DNA of 64,000 nt from an uncultured Woeseiaceae bacterium (GCA_964465665.1 CAYXKM010000285.1:1435-65434), one strand, 5' to 3'; positions 198-7,438 are shown, counted from the first letter of the stretch. The notes: a model not told the origin generated them from the sequence alone. Made by a program: numbers and translations.

Positions 198-276
198 AAA
201 TGGTGACAGTTACCCCAGTTAATTGCCGGAGCGAAAGTGACGTTTTCGCAATTGATCAGGGTCACTGTCACCAAAT
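198..276. repeat. Small intergenic element with terminal inverted repeats, copy 1
   Basis: TGGTGACAGTTACC at 201-214 and its inverted partner GGTCACTGTCACCAAAT at 260-276. Both arms recur as exact reverse complements at 4331-4418. Confidence 0.8.
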
Positions 277-282
277 CAGGGA

Positions 283-675
283 TCAGTGTTTGCCTGGATC
301 GAGCTCGACGCCGCGGCGTTCCTTGTACGCATACGCCAGCATGGCGATCATGCGCGGGTCGTCTGCGGCAAGGTCTTTGCCTTCCAGCGGATTGCGGATG
401 CACCAGTTGATCATTTCCCAAAGTTGCGCCACGCGGCCGATTTGCTTCTGAAATTTCGGATAGGTCTCCGGATGCGTATTGGCCGCATTCGGGTGGCATT
501 GCGCGCAGGCAACGCCGTTGGTGCCGATCTCCGGGCTGGTCCAGAGCCTCCGTCCTTCCGTTGCAACCAGCTCGAACTGTTCCATCCAGCGGGCGGTGTC
601 TTCCTCGGTAAATTCATCCGCAATCGCCGGGCCGGAAAGGCACAACATCAACGTACACAGGGTCAGGTATTTCAT
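283..675 (-). CDS. Periplasmic mono-haem c-type cytochrome (130 aa)
   Basis: C-terminal 130 codons of ORF 283..1185, starting at MKYLTLCTLMLCLSGPAIA (signal peptide). Single CAQCH haem motif. The ATG at 675 lies 11 nt after the upstream gene's stop. Confidence 0.85.
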   Translation of the reverse strand: MKYLTLCTLMLCLSGPAIADEFTEEDTARWMEQFELVATEGRRLWTSPEIGTNGVACAQCHPNAANTHPETYPKFQKQIGRVAQLWEMINWCIRNPLEGKDLAADDPRMIAMLAYAYKERRGVELDPGKH

Positions 676-686
676 GCGAGCCTCTC

Positions 687-1769
687 CTAGAAATGCTGCT
701 GGGCCGGTATGCGTATTGCCGGGTCCGAGAAACTCGTGTCTTCCGGGTGACCCTTGGCGGTATTGAATGCAATCGTCCGATTCGAGTTGTTGTACAAATT
801 GAATTCCAGGTCGACTCTGCCGGTGTGCATGTTCATGAACTGCCAGCCGGTCGCATCGCGTTCGTTGAAAGGATCCGCGCGGTTCATCGGTACCGTCAGG
901 ATCGGCATATGACTTTCGGCCAGTGCATAGCTTTCCGGATACGGCCACGGCCACGCCGTCGACATCACCGAAGTGAATGCAATGTTGCCGATCTGGTTGT
1001 ACTGGATCTGGTGTACATGGCCATAGATGACATTGACCTTGTCGAAAGGCCTTAGCATTGCCTGGATGTCGTCGGCTTCCTCGGTCCAGAAATTCCAGCC
1101 TTTGTAGATCTTCTGCAAAGGCGAGTGTGAAAAGACCACGATCGGCGTGTCCTTTGAAACCTTCGCGAGATCCTTTCGCAGCCATTCCATTTGCTTGGCA
1201 CCTATCATGAACGGCGAGCCGTTCGGATTGTCGAGGCCCGCCATCTCGTTCATGCGGCGCTCGTCCGATTCCCAGCGATCGAAGGTCCAGTCATCGTACG
1301 TAAGAATGCTGTTCAGGGTGATGAAGTGCACGCCCTTGTGGTCCCAGCTGTAGTAATGCTTGCCGTAGAGCTTGCTCCAGTACTCACCAAGGTCCAGGTA
1401 ATAGTCGTGCTCGCCCATGACCATGTACGTTTTGTAATTGAGCTTGGCCAGCATCTCTGCGCCGTGATCCAGTTCCGGCTTCGAACCGAGCTGTGCCAGG
1501 TCGCCACCGAAAACGACGAAATCGGGTTTCGGTTCGAGCAGGTTCGCCTCGGCCACAGCGCGTATCAGGCCGCGGTCCCAGTTCCGGACAAATTGGTTGC
1601 CCTTGATCTGCTGAATGTGCGAATCGGAAATATAGGCGAAGGTGAAATCGGGACCGCCTTCCTTGCCGTAGGACAGCCGTATCAGGCTGACCGGCAACAT
1701 TCCGGCGATCACGCCGGACATCGTGGTTCGCAAGAAATCCCTTCGGCTATTCACTTTAATGCTTTTCAT
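687..1769 (-). CDS. Tat-exported metallophosphoesterase (calcineurin-like)
   Basis: ORF 687..1769. Twin-arginine leader NSRRDFLRT. Metallophosphoesterase motifs DSH, GGD, GEHD (variant of GNH[DE]), SHSP and GHVH. Confidence 0.85.
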   Translation of the reverse strand: MKSIKVNSRRDFLRTTMSGVIAGMLPVSLIRLSYGKEGGPDFTFAYISDSHIQQIKGNQFVRNWDRGLIRAVAEANLLEPKPDFVVFGGDLAQLGSKPELDHGAEMLAKLNYKTYMVMGEHDYYLDLGEYWSKLYGKHYYSWDHKGVHFITLNSILTYDDWTFDRWESDERRMNEMAGLDNPNGSPFMIGAKQMEWLRKDLAKVSKDTPIVVFSHSPLQKIYKGWNFWTEEADDIQAMLRPFDKVNVIYGHVHQIQYNQIGNIAFTSVMSTAWPWPYPESYALAESHMPILTVPMNRADPFNERDATGWQFMNMHTGRVDLEFNLYNNSNRTIAFNTAKGHPEDTSFSDPAIRIPAQQHF

Positions 1770-2911
1770 TGTGTATCTCCCGATACGCCAGAGGCTGCAA
1801 CCGACTGAGCCTTCAGTGACTGGAACTGCGGGCTGGTAAGCGTTTCCATGAATGCGACCAGGTCGTCGATCTCCTGTTCTGTAAGATTCAACGGCCGAAT
1901 CCCGCCACTCAGGAACGGATTGACCGGATCTTCAGGCTTGGTCACACCGCCATTGTTGTAGTGTTCGACCACTTCGCGCAGCGTCTTCACGCTGCCGTCG
2001 TGCATGTACGGTGCGGTCACGTCGATGTTGCGCAACGTTGATGTCTTGAAGGAACCCATGGAGCTGAACTGGTCGTCGACCGCAAACCGTCCGAGATGCG
2101 ACGTATCCGCATCCGAGAGCACGGCGACATCGACATCCATTCCGGCATTCTTTGCTACCTGGAAGGCCCGTGCCAGTTCCGGTACCTTGTCCTGGATGTT
2201 GTTGATGCCGATGCCGATGTTGTGAAACAGGTGATCAGTAAAAAGGGCGAAGTCCTGTTCGATCGCGTGGCACGACACACATCGTCCGTTGCCAAGAAAT
2301 GTGGCGAATCCGCGTTTGGCCTGCTCGCTGATCGCATCCTGCTCGCCGCCGAAGTACCAGCGATCAAACGGTGAGTCACCGGAGATCTGCGTGCGTTCGA
2401 AGGCAGCGATGGCCCTGGTCACTTCTTTCATCGTGATCGATGTGGCGTCCACACCGAACACATCGCTGAACGACTTTATGTATGCCCGGTCACTTCGAAC
2501 GATTGTCAGCAGCGCATCATCGTTCGACATCGCCATTTCCACGGGATTCACGAACGGGTGCATGGACTGGTCCTCGAGGTCCGGCGAACGGCCGTCCCAG
2601 AACTGGGTCTTGTTGAACGCGGCATTGACGATTGTCGGCGCATTGCGCGTGCCGGTCAGTTTGCTTATGCCTTCGGAAACACTCAACGGACTGTCCGTAA
2701 ACGCCTTCTCTGCCACGTGGCAGGTTGCGCAACTGACCTCGCCTGTGGCACTGAAGCGCACATCGTTGAACAGCCGGCTGCCCAGTGCAATTTTCTCCGG
2801 TGTCTGCGGGTTGTCTGCCGGTATCGGGACTTCCGGCAATCCGAGTGGCGCATCCGCCAGTAGCGGGGCCGCCAGGATCAGGATGCCCACGGCGATCAAT
2901 GGTTTATTCAC
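1766..2911 (-). CDS. Di-haem cytochrome c peroxidase / MauG family protein
   Basis: ORF 1766..3109 trimmed to the GTG at 2911, which is preceded by GGAGGA. Signal peptide NKPLIAVGILILAAPLLADA. Two haem motifs, CATCH and CVSCH, and a CCP-like C-terminus (APYMHDGS). Its stop overlaps the downstream start (ATGA). Confidence 0.9.
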   Translation of the reverse strand: MNKPLIAVGILILAAPLLADAPLGLPEVPIPADNPQTPEKIALGSRLFNDVRFSATGEVSCATCHVAEKAFTDSPLSVSEGISKLTGTRNAPTIVNAAFNKTQFWDGRSPDLEDQSMHPFVNPVEMAMSNDDALLTIVRSDRAYIKSFSDVFGVDATSITMKEVTRAIAAFERTQISGDSPFDRWYFGGEQDAISEQAKRGFATFLGNGRCVSCHAIEQDFALFTDHLFHNIGIGINNIQDKVPELARAFQVAKNAGMDVDVAVLSDADTSHLGRFAVDDQFSSMGSFKTSTLRNIDVTAPYMHDGSVKTLREVVEHYNNGGVTKPEDPVNPFLSGGIRPLNLTEQEIDDLVAFMETLTSPQFQSLKAQSVAASGVSGDTQ

Positions 2912-3402
2912 TTTGTTTCCTCCCCGCTTTCTGCGGCGCGGTTGCTGGTCAATACATCTGTGGATTCCTGCGGCGAAGGTACGCCGCAGTTGAAAACTGC
3001 TGCGCCATCGAACCAGACAACCTGGTCGGCCTGCAGAACCTGCACGTCGCTGTAGCCGCGTTCCCGCAGGCTGAGTTGCAGCGCCGTCGCCCGTTTGCCG
3101 GTTCTGCAATAAACCACGATGGGCTCATCCAGGTCCGCCGGCAGGTCGGTGTTCGAATCGATGGGAGAATCGTGCGGCACGTTGATCGCACCGCTGATGT
3201 GCGACGCCTGAAATTCCTCGGCGGATCGGGCATCGAGCAAGGTGAATGTGCTGTTGTCAGCCAGGAAGGACAGCAACAGCTTCTGCGGGACAGGTGTACG
3301 GTTTGCGGTGATTTCATCGGCCAGCGCATCGACGCGCCCTGCAAGCAACGCGGGCAGCATAATCGTCACAGCAAAGAGCAGACGTCTAATTGCCGGTTTC
3401 AC
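2908..3402 (-). CDS. Periplasmic rhodanese-domain sulfurtransferase
   Basis: ORF 2908..3402 with a GTG start. Signal peptide and active-site loop CRTGKR. 4-nt overlap (GTGA) with the CCP gene. Confidence 0.85.
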   Translation of the reverse strand: MKPAIRRLLFAVTIMLPALLAGRVDALADEITANRTPVPQKLLLSFLADNSTFTLLDARSAEEFQASHISGAINVPHDSPIDSNTDLPADLDEPIVVYCRTGKRATALQLSLRERGYSDVQVLQADQVVWFDGAAVFNCGVPSPQESTDVLTSNRAAESGEETK

Positions 3403-3428: not shown

Positions 3429-3457
3429 TAGACTTGTTCTAATTTAGAGTCAGTCTA
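3429..3457. promoter_or_regulatory. 29-bp imperfect palindrome in a divergent promoter gap (candidate operator)
   Basis: TAGACTtgtTCTAA-T-TTAGAgtcAGTCTA, with 11 of 14 arm positions pairing around one centre (3443). It lies between the rhodanese operon start (3402) and the DUF3313-like start (3624). Confidence 0.4.
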
Positions 3458-3623
3458 GAAGGGCTTATGTACAATGTCAATTGCGGTAAATACAGTGCGC
3501 GGGGCTGGCCCTGACCGTCGTTGCCTTCATCGAGGGCGACAGGTATCTTGATGAGGCAACAACAATTTTCCTTCTGTAAATAACAAAAACGACCGCCTGT
3601 GTAAGGCCGGTTGGAGGCATGCA

Positions 3624-4331
3624 ATGCAAGCGAGCAGAAAGTCCCGAATCCTTCTTGGCGTGATCGCCACGGCCGCCATGGCGATGTCTGCCATCGCCAA
3701 GGAAGAAATTCCGGAGACGACACCGGAAGGTCTGGTGCTGATGAAGGACAGCAAGGCAAGGCTTGTTTATGCCAGGCCCGGCGCAACGCTGGACCAGTAC
3801 ACCAAGGTTGCGTTGCTCGATTGCTACGTCGCTTTCAAGAAGAACTGGGAAAGGGATTACAACCGCGATGCGTCAACGCTTAGCGGCCGCGTAACGACCG
3901 AGGACATGGAAAAAATCAAGAAACTCGTCGCTGATGAGTTCAGGACAATATTCACCGAGGAACTGCAGGAAAAGGGTGGCTACCCGCTGGTCGACGTGGC
4001 TGGCGAAGATGTACTGGTTGTAAGGCCGGCAATCCTCAATCTCGACGTCACCGCCCCCGACATCAATAACAGCGCGGGCAATCGCCAGTTCGTCACATCG
4101 GCAGGCGAGATGACCCTGTTTATGGAGCTGTTCGATTCATCGACCGGCGAAATCATTGCGCGGATCGTCGATCCGCAGGCAGCCGACAGGGGCGGTTTCG
4201 CGACGATGGCCAACAGTGTCACCAACAAGGCGGAAGCAGACCGGATCCTGCGTAAATGGGCTGTCGCGCTGCGCGGCCATCTCGGTGACCTGGACAAGGC
4301 AACGACGGCCGAGGGGGAGGCCGCGAACTAA
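3624..4331 (+). CDS. Secreted protein, DUF3313-like (family assignment from memory)
   Basis: ORF 3624..4331. GGAGG lies upstream of the ATG. Signal peptide ends AIA-KEE. Confidence 0.6.
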   Translation: MQASRKSRILLGVIATAAMAMSAIAKEEIPETTPEGLVLMKDSKARLVYARPGATLDQYTKVALLDCYVAFKKNWERDYNRDASTLSGRVTTEDMEKIKKLVADEFRTIFTEELQEKGGYPLVDVAGEDVLVVRPAILNLDVTAPDINNSAGNRQFVTSAGEMTLFMELFDSSTGEIIARIVDPQAADRGGFATMANSVTNKAEADRILRKWAVALRGHLGDLDKATTAEGEAAN

Positions 4332-4445
4332 TTTGGTGACAGTGACCTTAATTGACTCCGGCTGGTACTAGATCCCGAGACTTCTTTACCTTTATATGAA
4401 CAAGGGTAACTGTCACCAAATTAATAAGGTCACTGTCACTGTCAC
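4331..4445. repeat. Small intergenic element with terminal inverted repeats, copy 2, plus an extra half-site
   Basis: ATTTGGTGACAGTGACC at 4331-4347, GGGTAACTGTCACCA at 4404-4418, and GGTCACTGTCACTGTCAC at 4428-4445. Confidence 0.8.
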
Positions 4446-5359
4446 TTAACTTGGCGCAGGCACCAGTACTGCACTTTCTGCGCCTCGAGAAACGCCTCGG
4501 CGTTCGCGCCGTTCAGCATCGCCAGCGTCGTGAGCATGCCGGCCTGGGTGCAGGTGTCGGCGGCCACGGTAACGGATTCGGGCGCGTTCTCGACCGGCCA
4601 GCCGGTGAGGGGATTCAGGATGTGGCTGTAGCGAACGCCGTTCTTCAGCAGGAATCGGCGCGAATCGCCGCTGGTCGCCAGCGCACCCGATCGCAATGAA
4701 ATCAGTTTCTGCACGGAGCCTTCCCGGCACGGCGCTTCGATACCGACCTGCCAGCCGGCAGGTTGCCTGACCTCGCCGGTTACGACGAGATCGCCACCGA
4801 AGTTGATCAGGCAGGGGCGGGACGTCAGTTGCGTGACCAGGCCGGCCGCCCGGTCCACCGCATACTCCTTGCCGATCCCTCCGAGGTCAATCTGCATGCC
4901 GCGCTGCATGCGTATTCGAGGACGCGCCCAGGACACGCGACGCCAGCCGATGGCAACGAGGACCTGAGCGATTCTGTCTGCGGTCGGTATCCGGTCACTG
5001 CCATCGAATACCCAGACTTTTCGCAGCGCACCCGACGTGATGTCGAACCGGTGTTCACTCAGTTCGTAAAGTGTTACAGCGAAGTCCAGCAGGTTGGCAG
5101 TTTCGTCATCCACTGTGACCGCCTGCCCGTCGCTTTCGTTAATTCTCGCGACGATGTTGCCGGGTCGATACCGGCTGAACTTGTCTTCGATGCGCCAGGC
5201 TTCGGCGGCGACCCGCTGCAACAAGGCATTGGCGAGCGCCTCGTCGTCGGTGTCGATGAGGAGTTCGCACGGACTGCCCATGGCATGGAACAGCCCCTGG
5301 TAGTAGCCTGCTGCGGCACGCCGCAATTCCGGATTGCGGCAAATGCCGGCCTGCTTCAC
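4442..5359 (-). CDS. apbE: FAD:protein FMN transferase (ApbE family)
   Basis: ORF 4442..5428. ApbE-like blocks: MGSPCELLI, FDITSGAL, GGIGKEYAVD and ATSGDSRRF..YSHILNP. Start uncertain. I chose the GTG at 5359 because it does not overlap the upstream gene. ATG alternatives are at 5407 and 5428. Confidence 0.85.
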   Translation of the reverse strand: MKQAGICRNPELRRAAAGYYQGLFHAMGSPCELLIDTDDEALANALLQRVAAEAWRIEDKFSRYRPGNIVARINESDGQAVTVDDETANLLDFAVTLYELSEHRFDITSGALRKVWVFDGSDRIPTADRIAQVLVAIGWRRVSWARPRIRMQRGMQIDLGGIGKEYAVDRAAGLVTQLTSRPCLINFGGDLVVTGEVRQPAGWQVGIEAPCREGSVQKLISLRSGALATSGDSRRFLLKNGVRYSHILNPLTGWPVENAPESVTVAADTCTQAGMLTTLAMLNGANAEAFLEAQKVQYWCLRQVK

Positions 5360-5372
5360 AGGTCGTCTGTCC

Positions 5373-6701
5373 TCAGAAGCGATAGCTGAATTGCGCAATA
5401 ATGGCATCGAGGTCGGGATACAGTTCACGGCCGGCCTGGTTGCCGATAATCTGGTCTGACGGAGCGGAGCCGTCCTGCATATAGTATTCGAGCCGCACGC
5501 TCATCTCGTTGTCCGATCGTGTCTTCCAGCCGTACTTCATACCGACGGTAATCGCATCGAATTCGCCGAGTCGATAGTCGGACGAGGCAAATTCGAGCGG
5601 CGGTGCACCATCGACGAGACTGATGCGGTAGAAATCCGCTGCAGTTTGCGTATACCAGCGTACATGCGGTTCGAGGTATCGCCGGTCACCGAAAGGCCAG
5701 CGATAGCGAGCTTCCAGTGTATGCGAGTCGATCTCCCAATCGTCCGTCATGTAACGGTACGACAGATCGAGCACGTTGCCGCTCATGTAGTACTTTGCCT
5801 GGCCGTAGATGCTGTGCTTTGTTCGGTCGTCGGGGCGGCTCTCGAAGCGGTACTCGTGCAACGGTCCGGATTCGCCGGGCGGGAGCGTGCGAACCACCGG
5901 ATCACCGGTGGTGCCATCTACGAGGCTCAGGAATTTATACGGATCGTTGAGATAACCGCTGGACTGGCTCAGCGAGTAATTGAACTGGAACAGGAGATCC
6001 CGGCTGACGACCTGGGTCAGGCCGAGCACCAGGTCGGCGACGTCCTTGTCCTGGTCACCGATCCGGTTCGAAAGGTCGCCGACGTCCAGCATGGCCGACA
6101 GCGGCACCGGTGCACCCCCTTCCGGTTCAAGGCTGTCCTGCGCGTAGGCAAGTCCGAGCGACAGCGTCGTGTTTCGCTTGTTGAAATCGCGTGACAGTCC
6201 CACATTGGCTCCGAGATGGACGTAGTCGTATTCCTTGGAGGCGCTCAATCCGGCATTGATCGAATACAGCCGTGCAAACGGCTGTTGCCAGCCGGCCGTG
6301 AGGGCTACGCGCGTATCGAGAAAGCTGTCGTCGAGCGGGATCTCGTTGGCCGCCGTGGTGTAGGTGGCTTTGCCGGAGGGCCTTGTGAATGTCTGGGGTC
6401 CGTCGAACGGCAACGCACCGCTCGGTGTTGCGCCTGTCAGTGAGTCGGCAACAAGTCCGAGTGTCAGGATCCGATCGTCGACAAACGTGCGGCGCACGAG
6501 CAGGTTCAGGCTCAAGTCCTGCACACGGTCGTCGCTCTCGCCATAGTAAAGTAGCGCCGTATTGAAATCCCAGCCGGGTTCTTCCTGCGCTTGCACCGGT
6601 GAAACTGTCGATGTTCCCAGCAATGAGCAGGCTGCTGTCGCGAGCGACGCGGCGATGGAACGAGTGCTTTGTTTCGACATTCGATCTGGCTTCGTAGTCA
6701 T
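5373..6701 (-). CDS. DUF3570-like predicted outer-membrane beta-barrel protein
   Basis: ORF 5373..6737 trimmed to the ATG at 6701 (GGAG upstream). Signal peptide ends VQA-QEE. Alternating beta-strand-like sequence with a C-terminal FSYRF. Contains DSLTGAT. The DUF assignment is from memory of the conserved DUF4266/DUF3570/ApbE/thioredoxin neighbourhood. Confidence 0.7.
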   Translation of the reverse strand: MTTKPDRMSKQSTRSIAASLATAACSLLGTSTVSPVQAQEEPGWDFNTALLYYGESDDRVQDLSLNLLVRRTFVDDRILTLGLVADSLTGATPSGALPFDGPQTFTRPSGKATYTTAANEIPLDDSFLDTRVALTAGWQQPFARLYSINAGLSASKEYDYVHLGANVGLSRDFNKRNTTLSLGLAYAQDSLEPEGGAPVPLSAMLDVGDLSNRIGDQDKDVADLVLGLTQVVSRDLLFQFNYSLSQSSGYLNDPYKFLSLVDGTTGDPVVRTLPPGESGPLHEYRFESRPDDRTKHSIYGQAKYYMSGNVLDLSYRYMTDDWEIDSHTLEARYRWPFGDRRYLEPHVRWYTQTAADFYRISLVDGAPPLEFASSDYRLGEFDAITVGMKYGWKTRSDNEMSVRLEYYMQDGSAPSDQIIGNQAGRELYPDLDAIIAQFSYRF

Positions 6702-6708
6702 CTCCGCC

Positions 6709-6942
6709 TCAATTGCAGCCGCAGCCGCCGCCGCCAAAGCCGCGTCCGCCGCTCGAGGCTTCCTTGCTGAAATAAATGTGGTCGTCGATGCCGGCTTCTA
6801 CGGCATCCGTTGTCAGCTGCATCTCTTCTTTTGCCAAAACGTCACGTTCCCACGGTTCGACGCCCATGGACGTACATCCGCTTGCCGTTGCAGCAAGCAG
6901 CAGACATAGCGCCGCCGCTTTCAATGCTCTGAAATTCAACAT
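6709..6942 (-). CDS. DUF4266-like small lipoprotein with Gly/Cys tail
   Basis: ORF 6709..6942 (77 aa). Lipobox LAATASGC. C-terminus GGRGFGGGGCGCN. Confidence 0.7.
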   Translation of the reverse strand: MLNFRALKAAALCLLLAATASGCTSMGVEPWERDVLAKEEMQLTTDAVEAGIDDHIYFSKEASSGGRGFGGGGCGCN

Positions 6943-6946
6943 GCAG

Positions 6947-7438
6947 TCAATCCTCTCCTGATGTCAGTACCTGCCTGATTTTTTCCTCGTACTCATCAGA
7001 CTTTTTGACCTGAAAACCCATGTGGGTGGCAACGACGGCGCCGTCGCGACCAATGATGTAGGAACTCGGCATCGCTTCGACTTCGAAATACCGTGCCAGG
7101 TCGCCGCCGGGATCGGCAGCGATGGTGAACTGCGCCGGATAGTCCCGCAGAAACGCGTCAGCATCGCCGGGGTCGGCGTCCATGTTCACGCCGATGATGA
7201 CCAGGCCCTGCGCGGAATACTTCTCCTGCATGCGATTCATCCACGGAAAAGAACGACGGCAGGGCACGCACCACGAGGCCCAGAAATCGAGCAGCACCAC
7301 CTGGCCGCGATAGTCGTCGAGGTTCAGCGAGGATTCGGCAGCGGGACTCGAGCTGATCGCCAGGGAACTGGCGATCAGCATCAGGAAAGCGGCGAGGGCC
7401 GGGCCGAAATTTCGAACGCGAGACACGTCCATATGCAA
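6947..7438 (-). CDS. TlpA/ResA-family periplasmic thiol:disulfide oxidoreductase
   Basis: ORF 6947..7438. Signal/anchor segment, WCVPC active site and thioredoxin fold blocks. Confidence 0.9.
   Translation of the reverse strand: MHMDVSRVRNFGPALAAFLMLIASSLAISSSPAAESSLNLDDYRGQVVLLDFWASWCVPCRRSFPWMNRMQEKYSAQGLVIIGVNMDADPGDADAFLRDYPAQFTIAADPGGDLARYFEVEAMPSSYIIGRDGAVVATHMGFQVKKSDEYEEKIRQVLTSGED

Follow-up and report, generated by a model that had tools for sequence, protein, structure and literature searches.

A conserved dihaem enzyme, metallophosphoesterase-fold protein and cytochrome c gene trio from an uncultured Woeseiaceae bacterium, a candidate periplasmic redox module

MauG and MbnH are dihaem enzymes of one superfamily which have a Tyr haem ligand, use H2O2 as oxidant and act on a dedicated Trp-rich partner protein encoded next door, methylamine dehydrogenase in the case of MauG and the Trp-rich protein MbnP in that of MbnH. 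The Tyr axial ligand separates MauG-type enzymes from the Met-ligated peroxidases (PMC6405878). In Burkholderia, the MauG-like Tyr/His dihaem enzyme BthA (6NX0) is always encoded beside PhosA, an exported protein of the metallophosphoesterase (MPE) superfamily which is termed a putative purple acid phosphatase (PAP) and whose role is unexplained; oxidation chemistry on a partner protein was suggested by the authors (Rizzolo et al., 2019, PMC6405878). This pairing is the nearest published hint to the gene set addressed here, which was found in a 64,000-nt stretch of DNA (the window) from the genome of an uncultured Woeseiaceae bacterium (3.2 Mb, 97% complete). The set encodes a MauG-type dihaem enzyme, an MPE-fold protein with a GEHD motif and a mono-haem cytochrome c of the SoxA/TsdA type, accompanied in this lineage by a rhodanese. 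No paper was found in the literature on this trio or on the MPE-cupredoxin proteins that are among its relatives.

The window set differs from the MauG and MbnH systems in its partner, an MPE-fold dimetal protein plus a Cys-ligated cytochrome, and in the existence of fusions in its family that suggest a permanent complex and not one-off maturation. BthA has a Ser between its haems and not a Trp, whereas the window enzyme keeps FWDGR; no SoxA-type cytochrome has been reported with BthA, and PhosA is set apart by its published description as a putative PAP, not a GEHD-type protein. The set also recalls SoxAX, SoxB and TsdA, with which it shares a SoxA/TsdA domain with a ligand Cys, a binuclear MPE-superfamily enzyme with predicted export by the twin-arginine translocation (Tat) pathway and, in this lineage, a sulfurtransferase. 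Unlike these systems, it has a single-haem cytochrome with no SoxX or second domain and with Met for the active-site Arg, an MPE of 360 amino acids (aa) and GpdQ-like fold in place of the ~560-aa SoxB, no SoxYZ, and a link to peroxide regulators. A working analogy is provided by the flavodiiron proteins and rubrerythrin, in which a hydrolase-type or simple His/carboxylate dimetal scaffold carries out redox chemistry, receives its electrons from a one-electron carrier, either fused or docked, and is often under oxidative-stress control, although these proteins have folds unrelated to the window MPE, are cytoplasmic and use O2, NO and H2O2 as substrates. The interpretation put forward here, to which we give about an even chance of being correct, is that the trio constitutes a periplasmic redox module in which a composite MPE-cytochrome centre is coupled to H2O2 by the MauG-type enzyme.

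The three-gene core recurs in the same order at nearly every related locus examined, an arrangement far beyond chance. Two sets of 80 loci were compared, the best genome loci (one genome per species), with MPEs 66-82% identical to the window MPE, and a more divergent metagenome set (42-55%; BLASTP against the window MPE or its relative P0144), counting those loci with enough flanking DNA on the relevant side. Within the genome set the dihaem gene is located directly upstream of the MPE gene in 72/73 loci and the SoxA-type cytochrome gene directly downstream in 77/78, and the corresponding figures for the metagenome set are 50/53 upstream and 60/63 downstream. The genome loci span more than 10 phyla, the hosts including Woeseiaceae, Steroidobacteraceae, methanotrophs of two classes, Sulfuriferula, Acidobacteriota, Planctomycetota, Verrucomicrobia, Armatimonadota and Calditrichia. 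As a separate observation, a single fully flanked genome locus lacks both partners (L072, an uncultured Gammaproteobacterium; MPE at 6001-7056, 66% identical), the neighbours being ABC-transporter and MobA-like genes. Among 301 sampled genomes of the window's class, a tally that includes one unpublished genome (G039) used for no other statement here, 19 contain an MPE orthologue at E <= 1e-80, the window genome (G000) being one of them, and no orthologue was detected at this threshold in the sampled genome of the same family or in that of the same order; the distribution of the cassette is therefore patchy.

A preliminary description of this DNA, made from the sequence alone, had proposed a translationally coupled operon of four genes. 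The four minus-strand genes (Table 1) and their junctions were found as described: rhodanese and dihaem genes overlap by GTGA (2908-2911) and dihaem and MPE genes by ATGA (1766-1769), both read on the coding strand, and the 11-nt gap between the MPE and cytochrome genes (676-686) contains GAGAGG. A Shine-Dalgarno-like GGAG or GGGG precedes every one of the four start codons, no terminator-like site was detected on the minus strand within the block, and the N-termini of all four products, read by eye, resemble export signals. As for the joint conservation of the four genes, it holds for the dihaem, MPE and cytochrome genes, whose order is kept in both sets, and not for the rhodanese, which is present in 11/160 related loci and is therefore a lineage-specific accessory rather than part of the core. 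In Woeseiaceae-like genomes and Aliikangiella the rhodanese gene lies upstream of the trio, whereas Steroidobacter and Povalibacter (Steroidobacteraceae) have it downstream, and it may have been recruited more than once. Its product matches PF00581 (62.4 bits, 5.9e-17) and has a predicted catalytic Cys99 in YCRTGKR (codon 3106-3108), the six-residue loop CRTGKR being kept in 11 orthologues. As had been stated in that description, the coupled set corresponds to no named pathway.

The MPE matches the Pfam family Metallophos (1.8e-14). Its AlphaFold model (pLDDT 83) has GpdQ of Enterobacter aerogenes, Rv0805 and PAPs as nearest folds by Foldseek (E 3.5e-15 to 1e-11, ~15-17% identity), and the MPE has six of its seven metal ligands in common with these proteins. 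The exception is motif III, which reads GEHD (residues 119-122; 1404-1415) and aligns with GNHD of GpdQ, so that Glu120 replaces the metal-ligand Asn, as had been noticed from the sequence. GEHD is invariant or nearly so over all clades compared, distant relatives included, and with Glu at this position higher oxidation states of the metals would be favoured. The remaining hydrolytic residues are all kept (Asp49, His51, Asp90, His121, His215, His251 and His253). The protein contains 11 Trp and no Cys and differs further from its nearest folds in its predicted Tat export and in extra conserved segments (RNWD, LDNPNGSPF, AWPWPYP and MNRADPF) at the predicted interface with the cytochrome. The twin-arginine motif SRRDFLR, which the preliminary description had pointed out, is found at residues 8-14 (1728-1748); its RR is invariant in 47 MPE sequences, while the score against TIGR01409 is 13.9 for a cut-off of 16.7. 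A conserved tail of the form Q-x-H-F/Y at the C-terminus (window 687-701) is located outside the predicted interface.

Source annotations label this protein CpdA or Icc, and the Atlas label is 'putative metallophosphoesterase'. The 'CpdA/Icc phosphodiesterase' annotation is very probably wrong. The fold itself matches a class III phosphodiesterase, but with the CpdA model, whose cut-off is 225, the MPE reaches only 37.9, and motif III is GEHD, not GNHD. No NCBIfam equivalog fits, and the MPE does not belong to a characterised phosphodiesterase clade, membership in which the preliminary description had named as contrary to its own view. The motif II of PAPs is GDxxY, in which Tyr is a metal ligand; the window MPE has GGDLAQ (residues 88-93) and no Tyr ligand, and was not assigned to the PAPs. 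The comparison with SoxB and PAPs proposed in that description thus gave a divided answer, with PAPs among the nearest folds and no match to SoxB (TIGR04486) at E up to 0.1, SoxB being also absent from the 50 best fold matches. The likeness to SoxB that had been pointed out holds at the superfamily level and fails in sequence and fold, where GpdQ, Rv0805 and PAPs are nearest.

The dihaem protein is a member of PF03150 (CCP_MauG; 180 bits against a cut-off of 25.6, 5.6e-53) and has two CXXCH motifs, CATCH at residues 61-65 (2717-2731) and CVSCH at residues 211-215 (2267-2281). Tyr318 (VEHYNNGG; codon 1958-1960), the predicted axial ligand, aligns exactly with Tyr294 of MauG and is kept in at least 95% of 72 orthologues. 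The choice between peroxidase and MauG that had been left in the label CCP/MauG is decided in favour of the MauG type by this residue, and the Met/His ligation of a canonical dihaem cytochrome c peroxidase does not agree with Tyr318 at the predicted ligand position. The best NCBIfam models are MbnH (TIGR04039) and MauG (TIGR03791), both under their cut-offs. The enzyme is not MbnH proper (256.7 against 362.85), and clustering of the genes around the 160 related loci revealed no recurrent MbnP-like gene; nor is it MauG proper in the sense of tryptophan tryptophylquinone (TTQ) biosynthesis (217.7 against 443.85), its neighbours not being methylamine dehydrogenase genes. Among solved structures the best match is 6E1C (title 'Di-heme enzyme'), which we take to be MbnH; the match to BthA (6NX0) is weak (E 5.8e-13).

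For the cytochrome the Pfam match is to PF21342, the SoxA/TsdA cytochrome c domain (3.4e-13; 49.8 bits, cut-off 27). As reported previously for this DNA, it has a single CAQCH at residues 57-61 (493-507) and an extra Cys92 in WCIRNP (codon 400-402). The His/Cys haem ligation suggested there gains support from the alignment of Cys92 with the haem-ligand Cys of SoxA (1h31) and TsdA (4v2k), and Cys57, Cys60, His61 and Cys92 are invariant in 46 cytochrome sequences. SoxA or TsdA proper was rejected (TIGR04484 42.7 against a cut-off of 110; one CXXCH in 130 aa). In SoxA and TsdA an active-site Arg (Arg119, TsdA numbering) is invariant four residues before the Cys (PMC4423706). The window cytochrome has at this position Met88, which is nearly invariant in its family, with Gln78 at the position of TsdA Arg109 and Pro96 at that of Ser127; therefore the SoxA/TsdA thiosulfate pocket is not kept. 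A His-containing tail, PGKH, is conserved at the C-terminus (window 283-294), outside the predicted interface.

For the MPE (residues 36-360) together with haem and the cytochrome (residues 20-130), a complex was predicted in three runs with three controls. The ipSAE values were 0.49, 0.83 and 0.75 (median 0.75) against 0.00 for the best of the controls, with at least 51% contact agreement between runs and a pLDDT of the partner of at least 88. The mark given for the tool was reached by 58/80 solved complexes and by 2/110 mismatched pairs, counts that are only rough for the present run because own alignments were used and a small molecule was included. In the model, the MPE side of the interface comprises the metal ligand His51, the invariant Trp225, WPWP (273-276) and the segments RNW, GLD and RADPF, and the cytochrome side comprises residues 58-66 (the CAQCH stretch), His68, Gln78, Cys92 and Asn95-Pro96. 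The cytochrome is thus predicted to dock over the metal site of the MPE with the face that in TsdA makes up the pocket for the substrate, so that the pocket that has lost its Arg would open onto an oxyanion-binding dimetal site. Clades with a SoxA-type cytochrome retain Trp273 and Trp275, and in clades with cupredoxin or Rieske partners both are replaced. We know of no solved complex of this kind.

Further evidence comes from gene fusions. The dihaem (CCP_MauG) and MPE domains are joined in two proteins (744 and 745 aa, with 78% identity between them) that have lost the twin-arginine motif and whose genes each have a SoxA-TsdA cytochrome gene next downstream; a single metagenome sample is the source of both, which therefore probably represent one fusion event kept in two lineages. 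In a distant GEHD clade, a cupredoxin is fused to the MPE in ~90 of the 120 best matches. Other GEHD MPEs are fused to a Rieske domain (P0224) or have C-terminal extensions with a CuA-like motif, Cys-x3-Cys-x3-His-x2-Met (P0222), or a CFQCH haem motif of the CxxCH type (P0248), and other distant members have an adjacent cupredoxin gene (L088) or an adjacent HiPIP gene (L090). Other long relatives (P0172, P0175, P0131, P0184, P0151 and P0195) were not informative as fusions. Recurrent fusion of this kind, to one-electron modules, is what marks out a redox enzyme. A broader proposal can be made, tentatively and at somewhat less than an even chance, that GEHD proteins are a novel class of oxidoreductases of the periplasm with the MPE fold as scaffold, in which the change of Asn to Glu would make the two-metal site redox-active and wire it to interchangeable one-electron modules (Cys-ligated cytochrome, cupredoxin, CuA-like domain, Rieske, HiPIP or MauG-type dihaem enzyme), the trio representing an H2O2-driven haem-thiolate/dimetal active site. 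The MPE-cupredoxin fusion family is large and is annotated only as 'plastocyanin' or 'Icc protein'; by source name, at least some of the fusions belong to Gemmatimonadales.

Regulatory genes in the neighbourhood are of three unrelated oxidative-stress-linked types. A Fur-family gene with PerR as best models is present in 19 genome-set loci, mostly directly upstream and on the same strand. The redox pair of E. coli OxyR consists of Cys199 and Cys208, and the OxyR motif GHCLR...C, with the Cys pair nine residues apart, was found in 15/15 LysR-type neighbours checked; in the three that were scanned against NCBIfam, OxyR was the best model by a wide margin (209-272 bits, under the cut-off of 329). 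ECF sigma factors with zf-HC2 (ZAS) anti-sigma factors adjoin the P0144-like and cupredoxin-fused clades. Two of the GEHD MPE-cupredoxin fusions (L175 at 5001-6344 and L176 at 5001-6290) each stand beside such a pair. In the P0144-like clade, the cytochrome gene is followed by genes for proteins of 211 and 91 aa with no family match. Bacterioferritin genes were not among the recurrent neighbours of the 160 related loci.

According to the redox-module interpretation, the MPE and the Cys/His-ligated cytochrome would form a periplasmic heterodimer in which the cytochrome face made up of CAQCH, Cys92, Gln78 and Pro96 covers the entrance of the dimetal site (His51, Trp225, Trp273 and Trp275), and docking would result in a composite dimetal/haem-thiolate centre, the MPE metals having a redox role that we infer. 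The MauG-type Tyr/His dihaem enzyme would be a stoichiometric, permanently associated partner that reacts with H2O2 and takes electrons from the composite centre, so that a small substrate in the periplasm would be oxidised by the trio with consumption of peroxide. First among the candidate substrates is a sulfur oxyanion or persulfide, followed by Fe(II)/Mn(II) and then by peroxide itself. The SoxA-type Cys and the rhodanese of this lineage fit the first of these, and the periplasmic rhodanese of the window lineage might take or deliver sulfane sulfur at Cys92; a sulfur substrate is no more than possible.

Several points weigh against this interpretation. The potentials of Cys/His-ligated haems are very low, and such haems usually serve in catalysis rather than as simple carriers; those Tyr/His dihaem enzymes whose role is known act by modifying a partner protein, not by turnover of small substrates. 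All hydrolytic residues of the MPE are kept, and the protein may therefore act as a phosphoesterase or sulfoesterase. The complex is suggested by a model, whose scores express model confidence and are not a measurement. The CuA-like and cupredoxin fusions would also be compatible with a reductase, the direction of electron flow being one that we infer, and the HiPIP neighbour is a single case. Regulators of the peroxide type adjoin only about one quarter to one third of the loci, and none is adjacent in the window.

In one alternative, unlikely in our view, the MauG-type enzyme would act only once, with H2O2, on the MPE or the cytochrome, oxidising a Trp or Tyr residue close to the metal site, such as one of AWPWPYP, to a protein-derived cofactor or metal ligand. 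The conserved ligand Tyr318, the best family and structure matches to MbnH and MauG, and the abundance of Trp in the MPE, with conserved Trp at the active-site entrance, are as expected of such a maturase and its target. Methylamine dehydrogenase hands its electrons to a cupredoxin, which is echoed by the cupredoxin partners of distant GEHD clades. Precedents for action on a partner are the formation of kynurenine in MbnP by MbnH (PMC11951088) and the constant adjacency of BthA to a putative PAP (PMC6405878). However, a 1:1 fusion of maturase and substrate would be unusual, and the retention of Trp273 and Trp275 goes with that of the cytochrome, the pattern that a docking surface would show. 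Many GEHD clades, moreover, have electron carriers but no adjacent MauG-type gene, and therefore the chemistry of the MPE does not generally need one.

A second alternative, rather improbable, is a minimal Sox-like module, one of the candidates of the preliminary description, in which thiosulfate would be oxidatively joined to Cys92, the dimetal site would hydrolyse the sulfonate to sulfate, electrons would pass to H2O2 through the dihaem enzyme and the rhodanese would remove or supply sulfane sulfur. HiPIP is an electron acceptor of TsdA, and a HiPIP neighbour occurs in one GEHD clade. The SoxA/TsdA domain with its ligand Cys fits this scheme, as do the predicted complex, which would set a TsdA-type pocket against an oxyanion-binding dimetal site, and the presence of a rhodanese on either side of the trio depending on the lineage (upstream in Woeseiaceae-like genomes, downstream in Steroidobacteraceae). 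TsdA works via a Cys S-thiosulfonate intermediate, but the Arg119 that is invariant and most important for its catalysis is replaced here by Met88, and Arg109 by Gln78 (PMC4423706). The MPE is unlike SoxB in sequence and fold, the rhodanese is found in only 11/160 loci, the hosts (methanotrophs, Acidobacteriota, Planctomycetota) are mostly not known sulfur oxidisers, and no SoxB was detected over the family cut-off in the 97% complete genome of the window. The lost Arg, the rare rhodanese, the hosts and the missing SoxB also oppose a sulfur substrate within the redox module.

It is more doubtful still that the MPE is a true phosphoesterase gated by redox, its metals being reduced by the cytochrome (or by cupredoxin or Rieske) and oxidised by the dihaem enzyme with H2O2. 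PAPs are active only in the mixed-valent state, they are among the nearest folds, the hydrolytic motifs are intact apart from the Asn, and electron-transfer partners are found throughout the GEHD family. Nevertheless, the Tyr ligand that defines PAPs is absent (motif II is GGDLAQ), the docked cytochrome of the model would cover the entrance of the substrate, and we know of no precedent for fused electron-transfer domains that serve only to switch a hydrolase. An assembly of uncoupled parts, that is, a periplasmic peroxidase with its donor cytochrome, an unrelated passenger phosphodiesterase and a rhodanese, would agree with the CpdA or Icc annotations and with the reduction of bacterial dihaem peroxidases by small cytochromes, but is very improbable in view of a gene order kept across phyla at 60-80% identity, the existence of fusion proteins, the specific interface predicted, the Tyr in place of a Met ligand, the Cys-ligated cytochrome and a CpdA score (37.9) far under the cut-off (225).

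Table 1. Features of the window in and around the trio, with coordinates counted from the first nucleotide of the window.
Feature	Position	Strand	Remarks
Rhodanese	2908-3402	minus	GTG start, 164 aa, exported (predicted), single domain
MauG/MbnH-type dihaem enzyme	1766-2911	minus	GTG start, 381 aa
Tat-type MPE-fold protein	687-1769	minus	ATG start, 360 aa
Mono-haem SoxA/TsdA-type cytochrome c	283-675	minus	ATG start, 130 aa
Promoter-like site TTGACA-17 nt-TAGACT	3452-3480	minus	~50 nt upstream of rhodanese start; weak consensus match
REP-like element GGTGACAGTNACC, inverted pair	201-273		directly downstream of cytochrome gene
REP-like element GGTGACAGTNACC, inverted pair	4329-4440		in the window
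DUF3313 lipoprotein gene	3624-4331	plus	between operon and ApbE cluster
ApbE (FAD:protein FMN transferase family), DUF3570 outer-membrane-like and TlpA/AhpC-type thioredoxin genes	4442-7438	minus	
NADPH-dependent FMN reductase gene, start	3-179	minus	104 nt downstream of cytochrome gene, past REP pair

The operon is flanked in the window by genes for a DUF3313 lipoprotein and an FMN reductase and by an ApbE-DUF3570-TlpA cluster that looks like a separate periplasmic redox-maintenance set; the FMN reductase gene is not co-conserved with the trio. The promoter-like site upstream of the rhodanese is the single consensus-like site of the scan, against 1.5 expected in shuffled sequence, and is thus no more than chance. 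The element GGTGACAGTNACC, which resembles repetitive extragenic palindromic (REP) sequences, has 123 copies over the 3.2-Mb genome on many contigs, usually as intergenic pairs 20-70 nt apart; this genome-wide distribution led to rejection of the repeat pairs as borders of a mobile cassette, and the pair at 201-273 may mark the end of the transcript.

The GEHD proteins form a large, highly conserved family of many phyla (one Atlas cluster has 3,961 members, and the cupredoxin-fused clade at least 8,000 relatives at E <= 1e-20) that is everywhere annotated as 'CpdA/Icc phosphodiesterase'. If the redox interpretation is true, the trio would represent a novel enzyme architecture in which one pocket is shared by dimetal site and haem-thiolate, as well as a further example of a hydrolase fold turned to electron-transfer chemistry. 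It would also provide a testable function for MauG-type enzymes beyond cofactor maturation, which bears on the pairing of BthA with a phosphatase in Burkholderia, and points to an unrecognised periplasmic peroxide response in methanotrophs, sediment Gammaproteobacteria, Acidobacteriota and Planctomycetota.

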